Below, piece by piece: positions 1,148 to 48,043 of a stretch of 64,000 nt of DNA. The notes under the pieces are model-generated. The model did not search any database. It was not told the origin of the DNA and was given only the letters and a program-made list of their open reading frames with translations. A program made the position numbers and the translations under genes. This DNA is from Gammaproteobacteria bacterium. GTDB lineage: Bacteria; Pseudomonadota; Gammaproteobacteria; Pseudomonadales; Azotimanducaceae. The stretch covers positions 743 through 64,742 of the forward strand of contig PBRQ01000028.1 in assembly GCA_002725995.1 (NCBI GenBank), read 5' to 3'. Every line of letters begins with the position of its first letter. Position 1 is the stretch's first letter.

Positions 1148-1924
1148 ATGGACCATCCATCATTGAAAGACAAAGTTGCCATTGTTACTGGTGCAGCACT
1201 TGGCATGGGTGCAGCAACGGCAAAACTTTTTGGCGCTGCGGGTGCCAGTGTCGTTGTAGCAGACCGAAATGAAGAGAAAGGTTTGGAGGTCGTTTCAGAG
1301 ATAACATCGGCCGGTGGCACGGCAATATTTCAGTTTGCCGATGTATCCAAGACATCCGATGTTGAAGCGTTGGTAAAAGCTGCTGTGGACAATTACGGTG
1401 AACTTAATGTTGCCGTAAATAATGCTGCCGTCACTCCGGACACACATCCCGTTCATGAGCTGGATGAGAGCGAATTTGACAATATTATTGCCATCAATCT
1501 GAAGGGTGTCGCTATTTGCATGAAGTATGAATTATTGCAAATTCAGAAGCAGGGGGCGGGTGGTTCAATCGTCAATATTGGCTCCGTTAATTCATTTCGA
1601 CCTCAGCCGTTTAGTACAGCTTATACCGCAGCGAAACATGCGGTGGTCGGCATGACAAAAGTGGCTGCTCTGGAAAATGCCGCCGGTGGAATTCGCGTCA
1701 ATGCCGTTGCACCGGGGGCAATTGATACGCCCATGTTGCAAGGTTCTATGGGCGGATCCCCTGATGAAGCAATGGTGGCCTTAGTTGCAGGTAGGCTTAG
1801 TTTGTTCAACAGGCTCGGGAAACCTGAAGAAGTTGCTCAGGCAAGTTTGTGGCTTTGTTCAGACTTGAGTTCGTTTGTGACCGGCTCAACCATGTGCGTG
1901 GATGCTGGATATACAAATAGCTAA
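1148..1924 (+). CDS. Short-chain dehydrogenase/reductase (classical SDR)
   Basis: TGAALGMGAATA Gly-rich NAD(P) motif, NNAAV, catalytic YTAAKHAVVG (YxxxK), PGAIDTP. GAGGAG RBS lies upstream of ATG 1148. Confidence 0.9.
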   Translation: MDHPSLKDKVAIVTGAALGMGAATAKLFGAAGASVVVADRNEEKGLEVVSEITSAGGTAIFQFADVSKTSDVEALVKAAVDNYGELNVAVNNAAVTPDTHPVHELDESEFDNIIAINLKGVAICMKYELLQIQKQGAGGSIVNIGSVNSFRPQPFSTAYTAAKHAVVGMTKVAALENAAGGIRVNAVAPGAIDTPMLQGSMGGSPDEAMVALVAGRLSLFNRLGKPEEVAQASLWLCSDLSSFVTGSTMCVDAGYTNS

Positions 1925-1937
1925 AATCTGGCGATAC

Positions 1938-1960
1938 AGGTTTCAGCTTCGCTGAAACCT
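1938..1960. terminator. Perfect 10-bp stem hairpin between convergent genes (possible bidirectional terminator)
   Basis: AGGTTTCAGC-TTC-GCTGAAACCT. It starts 14 nt after the SDR stop and overlaps the last codons of the minus-strand gene. There is no clear U-tract. Confidence 0.45.
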
Positions 1961-2953
1961 ATGCACGAAGTCGTTGTACTGTATATCCTGGCTATCACCC
2001 CAGCCGACCTTACCGCCGAGCTTCCATCGAGTCTGGCAGAAATAGACGTTCATGTTCTGCCAGGTTTGCCATGGCATTCTGGCTGTCACGGAGCCAGTGA
2101 TTTCATGCTCGCGCCCACCAACTTCCGTTAGGGAAAGTTCAAACAAGGTGGGTGCGAGTCCGTCTGTGTCGCGGGTTGTGAGTTTTGACGCAGACGCGAG
2201 GGGGACTGTCTCTCCATCCCTTCTGACATAACCCCAGATCAAATTTTTTCCGGCTGGACGGCCAGGATATGCATCCAGCCATTCCGGATTCTTTGCAGGG
2301 TCATCAAAAGCAAGGACATGAAATGCAAGCTCGTCGTTGAAGGCTCCGACCATCCAGGTCATTGGCGGTCCCCCACTTGCTGTCTCCTTACGTATACCAG
2401 CCCAGGATCGGTCACGGGTAAAGTAGCCATCAATCTCATAATCTGTGCCTGCCAACTGGAGTTGGCCCCTGGTACGCATGGACTGCGCGAAATGCTGACC
2501 ACCTGGTCGTCCCGCCGGCGGCATAATCGCCTTGTATCCAATCGAAAACGCCATGTCCCGATCTTCATCCTGACAGCTTATGTTGATTTCGTTGAGTGGC
2601 TCTATCACTTTTACCTTCAGGCCAAGCTCTTCAATGCCGTAGTCGTCAATATCTCCCTCAAGCATTGGCAGAAAGCCAAAATGGTTGATGTATTCGCAGG
2701 TCAGCGTGCTGGTTTTAATTCCTTTCCAGATGTAGACGCTGGCACTCATTACATGAAGCCGAGGGTGAAACCAGATGTAGATTTCACCGTTGATCTGGCT
2801 CTCGGGTATGTTGAATCCAAAGTAAGAAGTTTCTGTTGTTGCGTAGTGTGCATCCTCCGGGACAGGATGCAGGAATTCATCTTCAGGAACGGGTTTGCTG
2901 AGGGGCATGCCGTCAATGCCGCGTGATTGAGTAATTGTCTTTGAACTGTTCAT
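1943..2953 (-). CDS. Uncharacterised RDxSW-family protein, paralogue P1 of 6 (putative CrtC/AttH-like beta-fold)
   Basis: The N-terminal PEDEFLHPVPED matches DDEYLHPAPDG (P4) and EDEYRHEAPED (P5). The central YFTRDRSWAG matches the RDHSW motif of the other paralogues, and the C-terminal VGWGDSQ resembles their GxGxxE. GAAGGAG RBS; the start is 2 nt after the stop of the upstream kinase gene. Confidence 0.7.
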   Translation of the reverse strand: MNSSKTITQSRGIDGMPLSKPVPEDEFLHPVPEDAHYATTETSYFGFNIPESQINGEIYIWFHPRLHVMSASVYIWKGIKTSTLTCEYINHFGFLPMLEGDIDDYGIEELGLKVKVIEPLNEINISCQDEDRDMAFSIGYKAIMPPAGRPGGQHFAQSMRTRGQLQLAGTDYEIDGYFTRDRSWAGIRKETASGGPPMTWMVGAFNDELAFHVLAFDDPAKNPEWLDAYPGRPAGKNLIWGYVRRDGETVPLASASKLTTRDTDGLAPTLFELSLTEVGGREHEITGSVTARMPWQTWQNMNVYFCQTRWKLGGKVGWGDSQDIQYNDFVHRFQRS

Positions 2954-2955
2954 TT

Positions 2956-4431
2956 CTATGCTCCTTCACTTATCTTAAGCAACTGCGCACCTGTTTGTTG
3001 GACGAATTGGCGATAGAGCGGGATCCCCTGGTACGCCATCTTTGTTGCTCGGTAAGAATCACTCAAAAAGCCATACCAGGATACAGAGCAACAGGTAGCG
3101 TTGCGAACCTGGCCCCAGACTTCATAAAAGATGGAGTCCCGCTCGCGAAATTTGATCCCGCCTGCATCTTCGTAAGCTGCAAGAAATTGGTCCCAGGGCA
3201 TAAGGGGCTCAATGAATCTTCTGCAGTAACACAGATCCTCCATTGCATCACCGGCGTGTGCAAATTCCCAGTCGAGTAGTGCCACGATGGCTCCGTTATC
3301 AACAAGTATGTTGTGAAAGCCGACGTCTCCATGGCAAAGGGATATTATAGGAACATCGGCTGGGATATTGTTCAACAGCCACTGGAAACCAGCGGCCAGG
3401 GTTGGAGATACATGAACCCGCCGGTACAACCAGCGATCCTGCCACTCTTCTATATAGCTGCGAAGTGCTTCTCTGGGTGATTGCTGGGCATCAATCGAGA
3501 ACCCGTATCTGGAAGGGTCTTCATTGTGAAGCTTTGCCAAAATCGCTGCGAGATCGCTGCAAATAGATATGCTCTGTTTGCTGTCGGATCCCCAGGCTTC
3601 GGTCCCGGATTCACCAGACATCTTTTTCGATATCATAAACGGCTGACCAAAATAATCTGAATCCTGCTCACAAATAAGCGGTTCGGCCACCGGATACCCA
3701 TTCTCACAAAGGGCTTTCAGCAATTCATACTCATCAACAACAGTATTCTCGCCCGGCCCGAATGGCAGGTCCCGGCGGCTGACCAATGTCTCAATTTCAA
3801 CGCCTTTGACGGTCAGTTGAGAAATTGTGTGGGTGTCCTTGGAAAAACCACCTGGAATCCGCTTCACTCCAGCTACTTTGCCAACGTCCAGTAACGAGGG
3901 ATGTTTCTCTGCCAGGTAGTCGTTGACAATTTCATCTGTCAGATTCTTTTCCATGCTCGAGAGAAGCGAGGTGTTCCTGCTGGTACCTTCGCCCAGTGCC
4001 TGCTGCTCTGCAGCAAATAGATCCTGGTCATGGCGCAGGGTATCGAGCACAAACGGGTTAATTTCGGTGCCCTCAAAATGGTCAGCGGGAGCTTGAGAGA
4101 TAGCCATATCAACCGCTGATGCTGTTTCAAAATAATTTGTCGAAAAATCCGGACTGCCAACGGCAACGTCACTTTCAAGTTCATGGCCATGATTGCGATT
4201 GTTGGCTTGCCTGTTTCCTGGGTTGAGACCCTTGAGAAGGGCTGTGAGCTTCGCCGTATGTTCCGGCAGGAATTCCCCTGCTGACTGATCCCACATTGAT
4301 AAATAGGAGAGGACTTCCGTTGCCATCAGTGCTGAGAATTTGGCGTCGGAGCTCGTTAATTCAGGCAAGATAGTCGTCAGAATATCCGCCTTAACAGATT
4401 CGAGTACCTGTGAAAGGATAGGGTTTATCAT
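2956..4431 (-). CDS. APH-family phosphotransferase (kinase) with ~165-aa N-terminal helical extension
   Basis: The Brenner/APH catalytic motif is LCHGDVGFHNILVDNGAIVALLDWEFAHAGDAMEDL (HGDxxxxN...DWE). The APH domain begins near residue 165 (NDYLAEKHPSLLDVGKVAGVKRIPGGFSKDT). The N-terminal part resembles the separately encoded protein at 18991..19437. Confidence 0.85.
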   Translation of the reverse strand: MINPILSQVLESVKADILTTILPELTSSDAKFSALMATEVLSYLSMWDQSAGEFLPEHTAKLTALLKGLNPGNRQANNRNHGHELESDVAVGSPDFSTNYFETASAVDMAISQAPADHFEGTEINPFVLDTLRHDQDLFAAEQQALGEGTSRNTSLLSSMEKNLTDEIVNDYLAEKHPSLLDVGKVAGVKRIPGGFSKDTHTISQLTVKGVEIETLVSRRDLPFGPGENTVVDEYELLKALCENGYPVAEPLICEQDSDYFGQPFMISKKMSGESGTEAWGSDSKQSISICSDLAAILAKLHNEDPSRYGFSIDAQQSPREALRSYIEEWQDRWLYRRVHVSPTLAAGFQWLLNNIPADVPIISLCHGDVGFHNILVDNGAIVALLDWEFAHAGDAMEDLCYCRRFIEPLMPWDQFLAAYEDAGGIKFRERDSIFYEVWGQVRNATCCSVSWYGFLSDSYRATKMAYQGIPLYRQFVQQTGAQLLKISEGA

Positions 4432-4433
4432 GA

Positions 4434-5618
4434 TTATGACCTCAGCAATATGGTGCCTTTTTTGGCAAGTTCGTCAATTTCCTCGGAGCTGTAATTCATT
4501 TCATGGAGCAACTGCCTGCCATCCTGACCATGGCCAGGGGCAGAGCAGAGCGTCAGTTCGGAGCCAAAAGAGCTTGCCGCTGGCCTCGGTCCCCTGATAT
4601 TCCCAGCCAGGGGGTGGACAGTTTCTTGCAGATATCCAGCCGCTTCGACTTGAGGGTCAGATGCGACTTCTGCCGGTGATAAAACAGGCGCCGCAGGAAC
4701 ATCAGCCCCGCGAAGAACTTCGAGGAGGTCCGCCAGGGGGACATTAGAAATTGACTCCTGAAGCGTATTGAACCAGTCCGCTATGTCGGCGCCGCGTTTA
4801 GCGGCAGTCTCGAAGCGCCCGTTGTCGATCAAGTCCTGACGGTTAAGTGCCTCGCAGAAACTTTTTGCCTGCTTGTCGGTGCTGACCGCGAGACTGACCC
4901 ACCCATCTTTCGCCTTAAAGAGTCGGTAACTCGATAAGATATTGGGCTGATGTGTGGCATCATCATCCAGCAGACTGCAGTGCATCATGACGTCCATCCA
5001 GGTGAAGGTTATATTTGATTCCAGCATCCCGAGTTGTATGTGTGATCCTTCTCCCGTTCGGGCTGATTTAACCAGCGCTGCAGTAATTGCCTGGGCGTTG
5101 GCGGTCGCAGCCACTTTGTCGGCGACAAATCCGCGCACCAGTGTAGGATCGTCTCCAACCTGCTGGGCACTCGCCCATCCCGAAAGCGACTGGATGAGAG
5201 GATCATAAACAGGTAGATCCCTGTAGGGGCCGGTGGGCCCGAAGCCTGTTGATGAACAATAAACAAGGGATGGATATTTGCTGTTGACTGCATCGAACCC
5301 GAAACCCAGTTTAGAGAGTACGCCTGGGCGAAAACCTTCGATGAGTGCATCAGTAGTTTCCAGCAGTTGCCAAAGAATCTTCTTGCCGGCCTCATCTTTC
5401 AAATCCAGTGCAACCGACCGTTTGCCAGAATTAGCATGTGCAAACATAGCGCTGATGCCGCCTTTGTTGCTGCCATAGAATCGTAGTTCATCACCGGTGC
5501 CGGTATTTTCAATTTTGATGACCTCAGCGCCGTAGGATGCCAGCAATTGCGTAGCAAGCGGGACCGCTACCATCTGCCCCAGTTCAATGATTCGTATGCC
5601 TTCCAGTGGAGCTGTCAT
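4434..5618 (-). CDS. Family III CoA-transferase (CaiB/BaiF type)
   Basis: The N-terminal LEGIRIIELGQMVAVPLATQLLASYGAEVIKIE is the typical family III signature. The track ORF starts at GTG 5633, but AAGGAG precedes ATG 5618, which I prefer. Confidence 0.88.
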   Translation of the reverse strand: MTAPLEGIRIIELGQMVAVPLATQLLASYGAEVIKIENTGTGDELRFYGSNKGGISAMFAHANSGKRSVALDLKDEAGKKILWQLLETTDALIEGFRPGVLSKLGFGFDAVNSKYPSLVYCSSTGFGPTGPYRDLPVYDPLIQSLSGWASAQQVGDDPTLVRGFVADKVAATANAQAITAALVKSARTGEGSHIQLGMLESNITFTWMDVMMHCSLLDDDATHQPNILSSYRLFKAKDGWVSLAVSTDKQAKSFCEALNRQDLIDNGRFETAAKRGADIADWFNTLQESISNVPLADLLEVLRGADVPAAPVLSPAEVASDPQVEAAGYLQETVHPLAGNIRGPRPAASSFGSELTLCSAPGHGQDGRQLLHEMNYSSEEIDELAKKGTILLRS

Positions 5619-5794
5619 GCTGTCTCCTTTCACTCAGGTTGATGAATTAGTGCTTTTCTGCACTTTTTTAGAATCGCGGACCTCAGCCCGCTCGTGACAA
5701 ATCAACTGTTGTTGATTTTCGGCCGATACATTCATGTGTCGTTCTAACAGTCGGCTTTTCAGCAGCCTGCCAGCAGTTGTTATGGACCAGGAGT

Positions 5795-41024: not shown

Positions 41025-42427
41025 ATGCCGGAAACCACCGTGCAAAAGCTAAATGGTGCAATGAAATTGCAGCTCGCCGGGGACCTCAATTCTGCTGAAC
41101 CCATCTACCAGGATATTCTTGAAGATGAGCCGGACAATGCGGATGTCAATCACTTGCTAGGGCTTATCCGCAGCGAGCAGGACGACAGTGATGAGGCAGT
41201 TCGCCTTATCCAAAAAGCGATTGGACTCAATGCGAATGCAGCCCCGTTTCATCACAACATTGCGGGTATATACAGGTGCATGGGAAGGCTCCGTGAGTCT
41301 GAATCAGAGTTCCGCAGGGCAATATAACTAAAGGCAGATTACGGTGAAGCCTAACCGGGTCTGGTGGAAATGGTGACCTTCGAAAAGGGCGATCCATTGC
41401 TTCAGCAAATACTGAACCAGTTGTCGAATAGGAATCCGGATTCAGGATTACGCAGCTACTTTCACTTTGCCGCAGGGAAAATCTGTGATGACCTAGGGGC
41501 GTATGATGAAGCATTCAAACATTATTCCGTGGGAAATCGGGACGCGAATAAAACTTTTGACCACAGTGAATTTCGCCAGGCTGTGAAGGATACGATCTAT
41601 ATCTTCAGCCGGACTTTCGTGCAATACAATATCGGCTCTGGTGGTTTAACGGGAAGCCCGATCTTTATCGTCGGTATGCCGCGTTCTGGCACCACACTAG
41701 TAGAGCAAATTCTGGCAAGTCATTCGAAGGTCTTCGGCGCGGGTGAGCTTAATGATATGAAATTTGTTGCCAGATCGGCCGGGAATATAAGTAGCATCAG
41801 GCAGAGCTTCCCTAATTGCATGCCCGGCATTTTCAGGTCAGGCTATGTAAAACTCGCAGCGGAATATCAGAAGAGGGTCGCCAGCGTTCTCTCCTCGGGC
41901 TCCTTTGAACGGGTTATTGACAAGCACCCGTTGAACTTCCAGTTCATAGGTTTGATTCTGCAAATATTTCCCAATGCGCGGATTATTAACACCATACGCC
42001 ACCCACTAGATACATGTCTTTCATGCTTTTTCAAAATTTCACAAAGGGCCAGCACTATACTTTTGATCTGGTAAAGCTGGCGCATTTTTACAATGACTAC
42101 AACCGGCTCATGGAACACTTGTCATTGGTCTATCCCGGGAAGATCTACACAATTGAGTACGAGAAAGCCCTTTCGGATCAGGAGGGGGAAACCAAGAGTT
42201 TGCTTGAGTACTGTGGTCTTGAGTTTGAAAAAGGCTGCCTTGATTTTTACAAGAACGAAAGGGTTGTAAAAACTGCCAGCTTTCTTCAGGTCAGAAAGCC
42301 TATATACCATAGCTCCGTAAATCGCTGGAAGAACTACACTGCTCAGCTATCCGAATTGGCTGCCATCCTTGGGCTTAAAATACAGAAGCCAGTAACCATA
42401 TATGACAGGTCATCTTTGCTTATGTGA
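41025..42427 (+). pseudogene. TPR-repeat sulfotransferase pseudogene (two in-frame TAA plus one frameshift)
   Basis: TPR repeats (DNADVNHLLGLI..., NAAPFHHNIAGIY...) are interrupted by TAA at 41325-27 and 41352-54, inside a TPR consensus AI*LKADYGEA*PGL. The PAPS-binding loop is FIVGMPRSGTTLVEQ. The frame shifts at the T-run near 42026-42033 (HPLDTCLSCFF / QNFTKGQHYTFDL). Confidence 0.72.
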
Positions 42428-42540
42428 CTGCGATTTATTCCAGGGGTCGGGGAAAGGCGGTCCATTTTCTCTTCACCTGGTGATTGAAATTTTCTGCTTG
42501 AACCATGCTAAAGTGTCTTCAGGGTTCTAAGGATATTCAG

Positions 42541-42999
42541 ATGAATTGCGCATCATGGGGCGAGTTTGAGCAGGCTATGCCAGAGCTGGCAGCGTTTGGT
42601 AGGGACCGCCTTGACGGCAAGGTTTCCTACCTCGCTACCGTACGCAAAAATGGCCAACCTCGTGCACATCCCGTAACCCCCATTGTTGGAGGGGGGTATT
42701 GCTTTATATTTGTCGAGCCGAGTTCGCCAAAGGTTCATGACTTGATGGAAAACGGACATTTCTGTCTCCATTGTGCAATGAATGACAGTTCCGGTAGTAG
42801 CGGTGAATTTCAGGTGACGGGCGTGGTTCGTCAGATTGAAGAAAGTGAATTGAGATCCGAGGCTGAATCAATTTCCAGCTTTAGGCCTTCAGCCCGCTAC
42901 CTGCTGTTTGAGCTTCGCCTGGCGGAGGTCATTTCCACATCCTATCTGGGTGGTCGGCCGAGCAGGCACAAATGGGTGCAAACTGCAGATGCCGGTTGA
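42541..42999 (+). CDS. Pyridoxamine 5'-phosphate oxidase-like FMN-binding protein
   Basis: SYLATVRKNGQPRAHPVTPIVGGGYCFIFVEPSSPKVHDLMENGH. Confidence 0.6.
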   Translation: MNCASWGEFEQAMPELAAFGRDRLDGKVSYLATVRKNGQPRAHPVTPIVGGGYCFIFVEPSSPKVHDLMENGHFCLHCAMNDSSGSSGEFQVTGVVRQIEESELRSEAESISSFRPSARYLLFELRLAEVISTSYLGGRPSRHKWVQTADAG

Positions 43000-43004
43000 G
43001 CGAT

Positions 43005-44360
43005 CTATAGTTGTAGCTGATTGAGGCGTTTGCGCTCAGGGTGATCCGGCATCATCTTCCTGTTGATCCAGTCTTTTACCAGCCGCTCAAGCTCGATGAA
43101 AGGTAAGGGGCCTGGCTTTAGGACCGTATTGTGAAATTCATTGAGGTCAAAATTCTGCTTGAGTATCTGCTTGCTCTGTTCCCTTAGCTCTTCAAGTCGC
43201 ATGCGAACCAGCAGTGGTGCTGAAAAGGTGCCTGGTATTTTGCGGGTAATTTGAATCGATTTTTGTAGTCGCTTGACCGGGTAAGGGGAGGAGGCGGACG
43301 CAAATTCCAATGCCTTGGTTTCTGACCAGTTGTCCGTGTGAATGTGCATGTCTGCAATGGCAAGGGAAATAGTCATTGCTTCAAAATACAGGAGAGAAAG
43401 CGCAGAGCGCTGAAAATCTGGCAGGTCAGCCAGGTTGGCGGTTAGGTAGACGGCCCATCCTTCTGAGTACCGGGGTATCGAAATCATCGATTGGATTTTA
43501 AGCAAAGGCCTGCTGCTCATGGCATACATGCCCGGCATACCGTAGTAGGTAGCGACACTTTCGGTTTCAAACAGGGGGAGTTGACTCATGTCGCCGAGAT
43601 CAATGCTGAATACTTTGTTGTTCGCCCTGTATGAGAACGTCCTCCCTGGGTCATTTTCTACACCCTCGACGGTGAACTCCGTGCTTCCTATTTCACTAGA
43701 ATCAATGCCAGCACCAATAAGAGCTGGATCAACAAGAGACGGTGTGAGCTTCCCTATGGCGAGCAGGGACGTCACTATGAGATTTAGATATTCCTGTCGG
43801 CCAGCATCCGTATTAGGCAAATAATTTTCATGATCTTCACGCATGGCTCTGAAAAGGGTTTCAATCGGCAGTTGATTGTCTGGTTGAGCAAGCTTGCGGA
43901 TACGGGCATGTGCGGTGGAGAGCCTCGCATAGGCCTCGTTCTCAAAGTCCGCAAGGTTAGGGGAATACGAAGTCTCCCGCCGGAGCATCTCCTCATAGGA
44001 AAGCGCTACTGAGGCACCTGCTCTGTTGCGTTCAGACTGCCTAAGGTATTCCAGCAGGCGCAGTTGGAGCCGGCTGCCGGCGGACAACTTTGTTTCATCG
44101 AGAGACTGCTTCAGTTTGTGCCGATGGCTATCAATTACGATCAATTTTTCGCTTGCATCAGCGTTGCTGATGTCCTGGAAAGCCAGGTGCAAGAGTGTTT
44201 CGGCTAGTTTGTTTTCGAACCGTTCGGTGATAGTTGCAGCTCGAGCCGTAGGCTGAATAGATCGGGACCCTGTGTCGATCACTGAACATGCGGTCAGAAG
44301 CACAAGGAATGTTAGCTTGAGAATGAGGATAGGGTGGAACAATTTGGTAGGTCTAGTCAA
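43005..44360 (-). CDS. DUF885-like lipoprotein (putative metallopeptidase-like fold)
   Basis: Lipobox LVLLTAC. YSEGWAVYL resembles the DUF885 EGWA motif. The TTG start overlaps the upstream stop by 8 nt. Confidence 0.45.
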   Translation of the reverse strand: MTRPTKLFHPILILKLTFLVLLTACSVIDTGSRSIQPTARAATITERFENKLAETLLHLAFQDISNADASEKLIVIDSHRHKLKQSLDETKLSAGSRLQLRLLEYLRQSERNRAGASVALSYEEMLRRETSYSPNLADFENEAYARLSTAHARIRKLAQPDNQLPIETLFRAMREDHENYLPNTDAGRQEYLNLIVTSLLAIGKLTPSLVDPALIGAGIDSSEIGSTEFTVEGVENDPGRTFSYRANNKVFSIDLGDMSQLPLFETESVATYYGMPGMYAMSSRPLLKIQSMISIPRYSEGWAVYLTANLADLPDFQRSALSLLYFEAMTISLAIADMHIHTDNWSETKALEFASASSPYPVKRLQKSIQITRKIPGTFSAPLLVRMRLEELREQSKQILKQNFDLNEFHNTVLKPGPLPFIELERLVKDWINRKMMPDHPERKRLNQLQL

Positions 44361-44958
44361 TTTGAAGAGAGTTTCTTATCCGATCAGCTGCCTCAGTCAG
44401 TTTTTTTGACCTGGCTATACATTCAGCAGTCTGTGTATTGACAGTAGTTCTATAGTTTTTGTCACCAATACTTTTAAGATTAATGAGGATGTTGAGTTCA
44501 GCCGATCTGATTGTTGCTGCAATTAGAATCGCGGCCATGGTGGAGTCGGTAACCAGGTTTTTGTTGCCGGTCCGCAGCAAAACCAAGGCGTCATCAATCA
44601 TTGAGTCTACCAGAACCATCATTTCACGAGGAGATTCGGCTGCCTCCTTCAGAGACGCTTGGATGTTGTCGAGACGGCCTGCCTCATTTTCAGGTCGCCT
44701 CAATGCCACCATGAGTTTGTTGAAAGCTTCGATGTCTGTCGTGGCCAGCGCCAGGAAAGAGACTCTGGCTTCTTGTACGCGGCTCTGTATTTGTGTGACG
44801 CCTTCGACATGAGGTGAAAAACTACAAACCATGGAGATGAGCGCCGCTGCCTGGGCTCCTGTGATAGCCGCTACTGCACCACCGCCGGGCGTTGAAGTCT
44901 TTGCGGCGACGGTATCCAGGAAGGATTCAATGGAGTTTTCAGACACGCCACTCTTCAT
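44353..44958 (-). CDS. Cyclodeaminase/cyclohydrolase family protein (Fch-type methenyl-THF cyclohydrolase / FTCD C-domain)
   Basis: KTSTPGGGAVAAITGAQAAALISMV signature. ATGA start/stop overlap with the upstream dehydrogenase gene. Confidence 0.75.
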   Translation of the reverse strand: MKSGVSENSIESFLDTVAAKTSTPGGGAVAAITGAQAAALISMVCSFSPHVEGVTQIQSRVQEARVSFLALATTDIEAFNKLMVALRRPENEAGRLDNIQASLKEAAESPREMMVLVDSMIDDALVLLRTGNKNLVTDSTMAAILIAATIRSAELNILINLKSIGDKNYRTTVNTQTAECIARSKKLTEAADRIRNSLQID

Positions 44959-45878
44959 GCCGGGTTCACCTGATGAAAGTTTGTAAACAACCGCAGGGTA
45001 TTACGCATACACATGGCGACGGTCATTGGCCCAATTCTCGGAATGTAGATATCGGCCATTTTTCCAATATCATTTTCAAAATTTGGTGTGCTCGAAAAAT
45101 TCAGGCAGATGGTGCCCGCCCTGATTTCACCGCAACTGATTTTTCTGAAGGAGCTGCTGGGAACCCCTGTGATCACGATATCCGACTCCATCAAAGCCCG
45201 TTCCCTTGTGATATTAGATTCACTAGGAAGGGCATCTACAAATTCAAGAGGACCATTGACATCAAAAGAATGCACCTTAGCGCCATCGTTGGACATCATG
45301 ATTGCGAGCGGTCTGCCAATTACTTCACTGCGGTTGAAAATAGATATGATTTTCCCATCCATGGGCCGTTCTTGATCATCGGTGTATATGCCTAATTCTG
45401 TCAGAATTTTCACAATTGCCAGGGAAGTGCATGGCAATACTGCTTTCCGTGACTGGTCACCGGAGACCGCCATGCGGTCATTGGCGGAAATTTTCTTTGT
45501 CCAGTAGGTGCTGCCTGCCTCAATGTCTTTTCTGTAGTCAACCTGGTTTCGCAGATAGTCATCATGTTGGTTGTTGAATACGGGAAAGTAGATGAAGATG
45601 CCATGGATATCGGTATTCCTGTTCGCGGCACTGATCGCATCCTCCAATTGCAGGCGCTCAATTTGGCGGAGATCATAGTTAATTCCCACCTTGTCAAACT
45701 TTTGTTTTGTGGCCATGGCGTAGACAAGAGAAGGCTTGTCACTTGAGGCGATCAAGCCAATAACATTGAGTCTGGCCCCCATGCTCGATACGTCTTGTCG
45801 AATTTCATTCACATACTTCTCGGCAAGAATTGATGGATCAGGTATGAGGGGGGAGGCGCCCAAGCCGTCAGCCATCAT
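44955..45878 (-). CDS. Monofunctional methylenetetrahydrofolate dehydrogenase, fungal MTD1-like
   Basis: IFIYFPVFNNQHDDYL, AVLPCTSLAIVKIL, IFNRSEVIGRPLAIMMSNDGAKVHSFDVN, DIVITGVPS and GPMTVAMCMRNTLRL closely parallel the yeast Mtd1 strings I recall (VYFPVFGN.., ILPCTPLAIVKIL, INRSEIVGRPLAALLANDGATVYSVDVN). The track ORF extends to 45929. I prefer ATG 45878, which overlaps the SIS gene by 11 nt rather than 62 nt. Confidence 0.75.
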   Translation of the reverse strand: MMADGLGASPLIPDPSILAEKYVNEIRQDVSSMGARLNVIGLIASSDKPSLVYAMATKQKFDKVGINYDLRQIERLQLEDAISAANRNTDIHGIFIYFPVFNNQHDDYLRNQVDYRKDIEAGSTYWTKKISANDRMAVSGDQSRKAVLPCTSLAIVKILTELGIYTDDQERPMDGKIISIFNRSEVIGRPLAIMMSNDGAKVHSFDVNGPLEFVDALPSESNITRERALMESDIVITGVPSSSFRKISCGEIRAGTICLNFSSTPNFENDIGKMADIYIPRIGPMTVAMCMRNTLRLFTNFHQVNPA

Positions 45879-46542
45879 TTTTTTTCTTTGTAATGGATCC
45901 GAGATAACCTTTGTGATGGCGCATCCCATAGTCCTCTACTGTGAACCCTTTCAACTCCATCAGAGTCAGGGCGATTGCATCACTTATTGCCAACATAACG
46001 GCGATTGTTGCGCTTGGTGTGATTTTTAGGGGGCAGGGCTCCTCAATATCGGGTCCCATATCGAGCACGATCTCGCTCAGTTCTCTGAGGGGAGAGTCAA
46101 TATGGGAGGTTATGCCGATGATGCTGCCGATACCCAGGTGGTGAGCAATTTCCAGCATCTCGATTACCTCATTGGATTTGCCACTGGTGGAGAAAGCGAT
46201 GATGCAATCCCCCTCGGAAAGCATACCCATATCGCCATGCCCCGCCTCTGCCGGATGGATATAAAACGCCGGGGTACCGGTTGAAGCTAGTGTGGCCGCA
46301 AACTTGTGTGCTATGAAGCCGGCCTTGCCTATTCCCGTGGTCACAATACGGCCATCGCATGCCAGGAGGGTCTTGACCGCCTCTTCAAAAGCATCAGTAA
46401 TTTTGATGGCGCCAATAGCTGCCGCTTCACTCTCGATAACACGGGACATTTTCTGCTTAATGTTCAGCTGCATATTGTTTGACTGCTTTTTGTTCAATGG
46501 GTGATCCTTGGCAGATATTGATAGCGCGTTATTATACGACAA
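45868..46542 (-). CDS. SIS-domain sugar-phosphate isomerase (KpsF/GutQ-like, without CBS pair)
   Basis: TTGIGKAGFIAHKFAATLASTGTPAFYIHPAEAGHGDMGML...IAFSTSGKSNE matches the KpsF-type SIS core. The protein ends before any CBS domains. Confidence 0.75.
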   Translation of the reverse strand: MSYNNALSISAKDHPLNKKQSNNMQLNIKQKMSRVIESEAAAIGAIKITDAFEEAVKTLLACDGRIVTTGIGKAGFIAHKFAATLASTGTPAFYIHPAEAGHGDMGMLSEGDCIIAFSTSGKSNEVIEMLEIAHHLGIGSIIGITSHIDSPLRELSEIVLDMGPDIEEPCPLKITPSATIAVMLAISDAIALTLMELKGFTVEDYGMRHHKGYLGSITKKKNDG

Positions 46543-46655
46543 GCCACCATGGGTGTAGGTTCCGATTGACTGCTATTCACATAGGCCGTTCTGGGTTGAG
46601 GGTCATGGCAGGCATTCTCCCATCAATACGGTATCTGGTTGCCCTTTTTTGGCGT

Positions 46656-47144
46656 TCAAGTGGTCGTCGCCAGTTCCTTTGCGACATCCCTGATGTGAGG
46701 GTGGTAGGCGAATAGCTCATCGATGTTCGCAACGGGAAGCCAACGGTGACCCAGCAGGTATGCCTCATCATCAACGGGTATGGGTTCCTGCTTCGTTAGC
46801 CTGGCTGCAAACCAGTGAGTTGTACAATCAAAGGTGATAGTGTCCCAGTCAAAAAGATACTGGGTGACCTTCTCTAGAGCTGGTCGCAATGCGACAAAGT
46901 GTCCAGTTTCTTCCAGTGTCTCTCGGATAGCAGCTTCTTCCGGTGTTTCGTTCTTTTCAATTTTTCCACCGGGAAGTGACCACATTCGCTTCCCCGTTGT
47001 TGGGTCCTGAAGCTCAATGGCGAGGAAATCTGCCCCTTTGCAACAAACGACGGTGGCTCGCCTTCTATTTTCTACTCGCATCGATCTCTCGCTGGTGAAG
47101 CATTGTCCCTGGGTGAGCGGGGTATTTGGACCGAAATATGACAT
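46656..47144 (-). CDS. NUDIX hydrolase
   Basis: Nudix box GGKIEKNETPEEAAIRETLEETG. The start may be the internal ATG at 47081. Confidence 0.85.
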   Translation of the reverse strand: MSYFGPNTPLTQGQCFTSERSMRVENRRRATVVCCKGADFLAIELQDPTTGKRMWSLPGGKIEKNETPEEAAIRETLEETGHFVALRPALEKVTQYLFDWDTITFDCTTHWFAARLTKQEPIPVDDEAYLLGHRWLPVANIDELFAYHPHIRDVAKELATTT

Positions 47145-47239
47145 TCCAGCCCGTTCGCTACTCAGCTTGCCTCAAATCTGTGAATTTTGCACCAGGCTGG
47201 ACCACAATCCACGGTATAACTCATTGAAGCACTGGAAAA

Positions 47240-48043
47240 ATGTTGAATATCAGCGAACTGGCGGTCAGATAAAAAAGTGGTGTGGCCGTGGCAGTTGGGC
47301 TGATCGTATTGTTTGGTGATGTCAGCATCAGCAAGCTCCCATTACAGCTCCTGCCCAACGTTCAGCGCCCACAGATCTCTATCTACAACAATTGGTGTTC
47401 GGCAGCCCCACAGGAAGTTGAAGAAGCCATTGCGGCAGCCACAGGAAGAGGTGCTTCGCTTCAATTCAGGTGTTGAGAGCATTGTCAGTAGCACTTCGAG
47501 GGGGCAGGGGCAGGTAGTACTGAATTATCAGCTTGGCTACGACATGAACCAGGCCATGCTCGATGTCATCAACCGGCTTAACCAGGCAACGCCCAGACCT
47601 GCAGATTCCGGTGAGCCCTTTGTTGCCAGCGGTGGTGATGGTGGTTTGCCGGGCCCTGCTTCAATTCTTATCCATGCCGGCGAAAACAATCCGGTCGAGG
47701 ACATGATTGAAGAGGTTGTAGAACCCAGGTTAAGCAGGATTCCAGGGGTTGCCCAGGTGAATCTGAATGCCAGGCGACCCAAAGAGGTCAGTATCGTCTT
47801 GACCCATTTGAAACCGCTATGCTGGGGGTTCGGGTGAGTGGTATAGCCGTAGCCCTGTCGAGGGCAAGGAATATTTCTGGTGGTTTCGCGGATGTTGGCC
47901 GTCGCCGGTATACGGTCCGTTTTCTGGGTGATGGACAGGGAGAACTGGTATCTGTATTGGGGGATTTACAGGTCGGAGACAGGGTGGCGATACGAGGCGT
48001 GGAACGACTTCAGGATGGGCAGGCGGTCAAACCTATTATCTGA
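47240..48043 (+). pseudogene. RND (AcrB-type) efflux transporter remnant: 5' quarter only, with nonsense and frameshifts
   Basis: MLNISELAVR is followed by TAA at 47270-72. RND N-terminal features are then spread over three frames (AVAVGLIVLFGDVSISKLPLQLLPNVQRPQISIYNNW..APQEVEE; GVESIVSSTSRGQGQVVLNYQLGYDMNQAMLDV; RLSRIPGVAQVNLNARRPKEV). It ends at 48043, abutting the convergent gene. Confidence 0.65.

Follow-up and report, generated by a model that had tools for sequence, protein, structure and literature searches.

How does a dehydrogenase that resembles yeast Mtd1 come to lie in a gammaproteobacterial gene cluster, and with which of its neighbours does it work? The question is raised by four genes at positions 43005–46542 of a 64,000-nt stretch of DNA (the window), which covers positions 743 to 64,742 of contig PBRQ01000028.1 (GenBank assembly GCA_002725995.1) from a member of the Pseudomonadales family Azotimanducaceae. 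The open reading frame (ORF) list and a reading of the minus strand show four intact, mutually overlapping minus-strand genes, and Pfam supports all four domain assignments. From upstream to downstream they encode a sugar isomerase (SIS) protein, an Mtd1-type tetrahydrofolate (THF) dehydrogenase, an FTCD_C/Fch-type protein and a DUF885-like lipoprotein. The overlaps are those given in a preliminary description of this DNA. The SIS stop codon (45868–45870) lies within the dehydrogenase ORF, giving an overlap of 11 or 62 nt depending on whether the latter starts at ATG 45878 or 45929. The dehydrogenase and fch genes share the ATGA at 44955–44958, and an 8-nt overlap joins the fch stop codon (44353–44355) to the DUF885-like TTG start at 44360. 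These overlaps suggest translational coupling, and the four genes are presumably co-transcribed.

The answer considered probable is that the dehydrogenase and the Fch-type protein form the functional core, a two-protein replacement of FolD, and that the SIS and DUF885-like genes are neighbours and not partners. The Mtd1-type dehydrogenase would oxidise 5,10-methylene-THF to 5,10-methenyl-THF, probably with NAD+, and the Fch-type protein would hydrolyse methenyl-THF to 10-formyl-THF. The two proteins would together do the job of bifunctional FolD.

The dehydrogenase and its Fch-type partner

The dehydrogenase gene (44955–45878, minus strand) encodes 307 aa from ATG 45878. The ORF reaches ATG 45929, but the start at 45878 fits orthologues of about 300 aa. 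The protein has the Pfam domain pair THF_DHG_CYH and THF_DHG_CYH_C, as does bifunctional FolD, with which it would also share the net pathway position. It is nevertheless not a FolD by sequence. A search of all PDB sequences gives yeast MTD1 (1edz/1ee9) with an E-value of 1.7e-53, the best FolD at only 1.5e-8, and no MtdA structure. Scores against the NCBIfam FolD models do not exceed 56 bits, far below all of the cut-offs, which range from 333 to 530. Identity to Saccharomyces cerevisiae Mtd1 is about 40% over the whole length.

Alignment with FolDs and with named fungal Mtd1 proteins shows that three catalytic residues of FolD are replaced. The Lys of YxxxK is Thr in the window protein (Thr, Ala or Met in other Mtd1-like proteins), the Gln of VQLPLP is Tyr (elsewhere Tyr or Phe), and the Asp of DVDG is Glu, as it is in the other Mtd1-like proteins. 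Replacement at these three sites is seen in every Mtd1-like member aligned. The window protein has Y-A-M-A-T and I-Y-F-P-V at the cyclohydrolase Lys and Gln sites, as in fungal Mtd1. With the S. cerevisiae protein it shares the Thr and Tyr as well as the Glu, Cys-Thr and NRSExxGRP...SxD motifs. Absence of the FolD Lys and Gln is presumably what makes yeast Mtd1 monofunctional, and the window protein, an Mtd1-type enzyme without the FolD cyclohydrolase residues, is predicted to be monofunctional also. Residues Y53, E120, C150, T151 and D206 are invariant among 27 relatives aligned. D206 is the Asp in the S-x-D position, which is common to the fungal Mtd1 sequences and which, as in Rossmann folds generally, is taken as a hint of NAD+ use; the dehydrogenase is probably NAD+-linked.

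An exhaustive search of cluster representatives yields 327 with E ≤ 1e-10 to the Mtd1-like protein. Some of these lie on clearly prokaryotic contigs, in some cases beside an FTCD_C gene and in others not, and the Mtd1–FTCD_C pair is also present on two unrelated bacterial contigs. In a tree made by a quick method and rooted on FolD, the Mtd1-like and FolD groups split with full support. The gammaproteobacterial Mtd1-like sequences form one clade (support 99), which joins other representatives, part of them from bacterial contexts. The named fungal Mtd1 proteins form a separate clade (support 96) together with sequences of unknown origin, so the window dehydrogenase is not nested among fungi. 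PDB scores, the tree split and the residue replacements agree in placing the protein with Mtd1 and not with bacterial FolD or MtdA, as had been proposed. The accompanying idea that a fungal-type gene was acquired by transfer finds no support, as the bacterial clade stands outside the fungal one. No direction or donor of transfer is claimed, because the deep forks lack support and the origin of many representatives is not known. In a survey of the gene family published in 2024, MTD1 counts as a fungal duplicate (PMC11064299).

The window gene differs from S. cerevisiae MTD1 in being bacterial, in lying outside the fungal clade and in always being paired with a separate Fch gene. In most carriers examined here it is the sole enzyme of its family and not an extra one. 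Yeast is not known to have a stand-alone Fch and depends instead on trifunctional Ade3/Mis1. Proteins of this type in the related genomes are named bifunctional FolD or hypothetical by NCBI, whereas some JGI entries read 'methylenetetrahydrofolate dehydrogenase (NAD+)'. The present assignment corrects the NCBI names.

The partner gene (44353–44958, minus strand) encodes a stand-alone protein of 201 aa. It matches Pfam FTCD_C (PF04961) at 3.8e-41 over profile positions 1–180 of 182, and NCBIfam FchA (NF045657) at 4.4e-35, with 121 bits against a cut-off of 275. PDB matches carry both cyclohydrolase and cyclodeaminase annotations. The best, 1o5h (1.2e-25), is deposited as a cyclodeaminase; 7vg4 (1.7e-23) is a methenyl-THF cyclohydrolase. 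The genomic context favours a methenyl-THF cyclohydrolase over a cyclodeaminase, and a separate Fch-type protein for the cyclohydrolase step, as put forward in the preliminary description, is to that extent supported. A complex prediction for the dehydrogenase and the Fch-type protein gives a score of 0.00, which is under the mark and speaks neither way.

The MtdA–Fch pair of Methylobacterium extorquens follows a like logic, with two proteins in place of FolD, and its Fch is homologous to the window protein (the 7vg4 match). The difference is in the dehydrogenase, which here belongs to the FolD/Mtd1 family and not to the MtdA family. There is no sign in the present hosts of the ribulose monophosphate (RuMP) pathway, the only methylotrophy trait searched for. 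No description of the present system was found in the searchable literature on bacterial Mtd1, EC 1.5.1.15/K00295, DUF885 function, or FolD and Fch in Gammaproteobacteria.

Distribution of the pair and of FolD

The gene order is conserved in relatives. A sample of 40 carriers, spread over more than 10 genera, shows FTCD_C directly after the Mtd1-like gene in all 40. The SIS gene precedes the dehydrogenase in 39 of them, frequently with overlaps of 4 nt; in 37 the pair is followed by a DUF885-like gene. The four-gene arrangement is not a chance one, and the expectation that it would be syntenic elsewhere is borne out. Among 41 genomes, FTCD_C is present in 9/9 that have the Mtd1-like gene and in 0/32 that lack it.

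A wider survey of the window's GTDB family took in 400 genomes, with canonical FolD defined as a PF00763 match at E ≤ 1e-25 and the FolD and Mtd1 tallies cross-tabulated by hand. The Mtd1-like gene is found in 92 of the 400 genomes (91 of the 399 other than the window's own) and in 12 of 44 genera, counting that of the window. No copy was found in the order's 16 other families, each represented by one genome, or in 400 genomes drawn from across the phylum. Canonical FolD is present in 288 of the 400 family genomes. The two distributions are complementary: FolD was found in only six of the 92 genomes with the Mtd1-like gene (G000, G002, G553, G723, G725 and G737) and not in the other 86, whereas among the 308 genomes without that gene it was found in 282 and not in 26. 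At a loose threshold G001, G003, G004, G006, G007 and G008 each have a single THF_DHG_CYH match, which is the Mtd1-like gene. The same is true of five single-contig genomes from three genera, so assembly gaps are not the cause of the absence of FolD. This near-exclusion of FolD, with the strict co-occurrence and adjacency of FTCD_C, is the reason for preferring to read the pair as a FolD replacement made of two proteins.

The question of whether a canonical folD lies elsewhere in the window's own genome, raised in the preliminary description, can be answered: it does, and this genome is one of the six with both. Its FolD is native to the family, as it clusters with the FolDs of genera g1 and g2 and is 96% identical to the FolD of G005, a sister species and the closest relative. 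Both the FolD and the Mtd1 states are present inside genera g1 and g2, which indicates switches within a genus. Such a pattern is in keeping with coexistence and later reciprocal loss. FolD and the cassette would have been present together in an ancestor, each then being lost in different lines, and the window's genome would be among the few that keep both. Within this marine family, the pair would in this way have taken the place of FolD in one clade of about 12 genera.

Several observations weigh against a simple replacement of FolD by the pair. The window's genome has both FolD and Fhs, and here the pair may on that account be redundant or dissimilatory, serving NAD-linked one-carbon (C1) oxidation. 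The FchA score of the Fch-type protein is far below the cut-off, and sequence cannot tell a cyclohydrolase from a formimino-THF cyclodeaminase. Overlap of the SIS and dehydrogenase genes is conserved over many genera, and there may be a functional tie between them. The 26 genomes with neither FolD nor an Mtd1-like gene include G534, which is rated 100% complete; therefore either an enzyme, perhaps a divergent one, escapes the searches or there is a third solution. Genomes of relatives are also non-independent samples. Because of these last two points the comparative evidence, although strong, is short of proof.

A broader proposal is tentative and falls a little short of probable. It holds that FolD has been displaced by Mtd1 and Fch across the clade, that the main oxidation of methylene-THF has moved from NADP+ to NAD+, and that fungal Mtd1 is an offshoot of a sparse, mainly bacterial family. 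FolD is regarded as almost universal in bacteria and as part of the core of their one-carbon metabolism, and a repeated swap between FolD and Mtd1 plus Fch is visible here within single genera. Such a swap offers a clean system for asking why a bifunctional NADP enzyme is used in one case and a split, probably NAD-linked pair in another, and whether the change of cofactor affects redox balance in marine heterotrophs. It bears also on where fungal Mtd1 came from.

Another explanation is that the pair is an accessory dissimilatory module that oxidises C1 units and feeds Fhs, yielding NADH, ATP and formate from methyl groups, with FolD remaining the biosynthetic enzyme. Both FolD and Fhs in this genome agree with such a module, as does the invariant S-x-D Asp, since NAD+ use, which such an Asp suggests in Rossmann folds, would favour oxidation. 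The wider distribution makes it unlikely. FolD was not found in 86 of the 92 carriers, and Fhs is absent in 8 of the 9 carriers among the closest relatives. The FolD-less genomes among these lack Fhs as well, and in them mtd-fch is therefore the only route found to 10-formyl-THF. A further point against the module is that no PurU-like third gene of the formyltransferase fold was found in the window's genome. Fhs was also considered as an obligatory partner of mtd-fch and was rejected on the same absence from the closest relatives.

The SIS and DUF885-like genes

The SIS gene (45868–46473, minus strand) most likely starts at ATG 46473 and encodes 201 aa, matching orthologues of 193–205 aa; the ORF reaches TTG 46542. 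The protein matches Pfam SIS at 1e-22 and NCBIfam KdsD at 6e-44, the latter over model positions 9–199 of 328 only. The GutQ match is in the same 6e-44 range. The best solved relative is 3etn, a single-SIS protein of Bacteroides fragilis, which is matched over the full length at 4e-44. The GKAG, HPxEAxHGD, SGK..E and RHHxGYLG motifs align with 3etn, which is likewise without CBS domains. The canonical form of KdsD has a C-terminal pair of CBS domains. The match to a model of that form stops at position 156 of 268, and there is no CBS domain in the SIS gene or its orthologues. The match limit and the orthologue lengths show the protein to be of a single-SIS subtype and not a canonical KdsD. A KpsF with its CBS domains lost to a frameshift is excluded, because CBS domains are absent in the orthologues too and the next gene starts inside the last SIS codons. 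The protein is thus the CBS-less isomerase that had been described. The C8 CBS-pair protein was considered as a remnant of a split KdsD and rejected, as it sits among acyl-CoA dehydrogenase genes.

This is the only match of the KpsF/KdsD type in the window's genome, where KdsA is also present (394.7 bits against a cut-off of 314). The 24 closest family genomes each have exactly one KpsF-type match, which is the short single-SIS form in 20 and full-length in 4; the two forms are never found together. All of the other 16 families of the order have the full-length KdsD. The short form is present with and without mtd-fch, and in genomes without the dehydrogenase it lies beside a GH20 gene. The SIS protein is read as the housekeeping, CBS-less arabinose-5-phosphate isomerase of the family. 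It would serve the synthesis of 3-deoxy-D-manno-octulosonate (Kdo) and lipopolysaccharide, and the cassette sits directly behind its gene.

As an observation in its own right, nearly the whole family (20 of 24 sampled) has replaced a KdsD of one SIS and two CBS domains by a CBS-less isomerase of about 200 aa whose nearest counterpart is the single-SIS enzyme from B. fragilis. The host in this case is a gammaproteobacterium in an order that otherwise has the full-length, CBS-bearing KdsD. The replacement bears on the purpose of the CBS domains.

The DUF885-like gene (43005–44360, minus strand) has a TTG start and encodes 451 aa with a signal peptide and the lipobox L-T-A-C. The match to Pfam DUF885, a family of the Peptidase_MA clan, is 3.1e-29, with 103.4 bits against a gathering cut-off of 32.4, and is limited to profile positions 218–532, the C-terminal 60%. 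Relative to DUF885 proteins, the N-terminal half is shorter by about 150 residues. The AlphaFold model has a predicted local distance difference test (pLDDT) value of 88.6, and its top Foldseek matches are 3o0y (7e-12, probability 1.00), 3iuk and 3u24, which have a like fold and belong to the same family; 3o0y and 3u24 are also lipoproteins. In the sequence match to 3o0y (4.4e-12), YYGMPGMY of the window protein aligns to HEanPGHH, so that the HExxPGHH motif is replaced. Among the aligned orthologues, which are 374–634 aa long and most of which keep the lipobox, a single one has retained the motif. This is the fastest-evolving protein of the set, with 50% identity to its counterpart in the same-genus locus L003, against 87% for the SIS protein. 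It is predicted to be an exported lipoprotein with the gluzincin-like DUF885 fold that has lost the metal motif. It is probably metal-free and may well be inactive. Export and the probable lack of a metal make a role in cytoplasmic folate chemistry unlikely. The sole orthologue found with the motif (HEGIPGHH) is the full-length protein of 596 aa encoded at 1346–3136 (minus strand) of locus L054 in G553. This genome is one of the six with both FolD and the Mtd1-like gene.

Comparison with close relatives shows that the modules of the cluster can occur apart. In G005 the SIS and DUF885 genes are kept and exactly the 1.6-kb mtd-fch cassette is missing; homology to the window runs up to the SIS stop codon and resumes inside DUF885. 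In G007 the reverse is seen, with mtd-fch present but without an adjoining SIS or DUF885 gene, and the KdsD of this genome is full-length. A functional link of the SIS and DUF885-like proteins with the C1 pair had been suggested and is unsupported, as the short SIS form is, in nearly all of the family, the only isomerase of the KdsD type regardless of mtd-fch, and these two genomes separate the modules. The G005 junction at the missing cassette (positions 5487–5694 of locus L027) has tandem duplications around the DUF885 start, with GGGGCTCTTCCAGC present twice and GGCGAGACCCGGTCAG present twice.

The same observations bear on the proposal that all four genes serve one dedicated pathway, such as supply of a formyl donor for an N-formylated sugar or surface glycan. 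Tight overlaps, an order kept in 37 of 40 relatives and a nearby sulfotransferase gene agree with a common pathway. It is nonetheless improbable, since the modules occur apart, the DUF885-like protein is exported without a metal motif and the sulfotransferase gene is broken. A further point against the formyl-sugar idea is that only PurN- and Fmt-like formyltransferases, and no sugar formyltransferase, were found in the genome.

Still less favoured, and quite improbable, is a role in C1 salvage from histidine or purine breakdown, in which the FTCD_C protein would be a formimino-THF cyclodeaminase and the dehydrogenase would reduce methenyl-THF. The deposited annotation of 1o5h and the FchA score under the cut-off would agree with a cyclodeaminase, but no FTCD_N formiminotransferase was found in the window's genome (87% complete), and complementarity with FolD calls for a cyclohydrolase. 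A link of RuMP formaldehyde fixation to THF-bound C1 units through a 6-phospho-3-hexuloisomerase-like SIS protein, also raised earlier, is hardly credible, as the HxlB match is weak (1.9e-11) beside the far stronger KdsD and GutQ matches and a search for a hexulose-phosphate synthase was negative (25.7 bits, where the cut-off is 200).

Flanking genes

A convergent PNPOx-like gene (42505–42999, plus strand; Pfam PNPOx_N 3.8e-8) ends 5 nt from the DUF885 stop codon and marks the 3' limit of the four-gene unit. Its convergent position next to the unit is conserved in 33 of 50 loci. On the other side a NUDIX hydrolase gene (46656–47144, minus strand; Pfam NUDIX 1e-17) is 113 nt upstream of the SIS ORF. 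It adjoins SIS in 25 of 50 loci and is, as a frequent neighbour in relatives, at most a candidate member of the unit. A scan of 42400–47400 for consensus promoters and terminators gives counts no higher than the shuffled expectation and is uninformative.

The TPR-sulfotransferase gene at 41025–42427 (plus strand) is a pseudogene in the window. Aligned to it, the intact 467-aa protein from G005 passes in-frame stops, with ORFs that end at 41327 and 42074, and then changes frame near 42026–42290. Locus L003, from the same genus, has two genes between NUDIX and SIS that the window lacks. The interval from transglutaminase to NUDIX (47145–48043) measures about 900 nt in the window and about 270 nt in G005.

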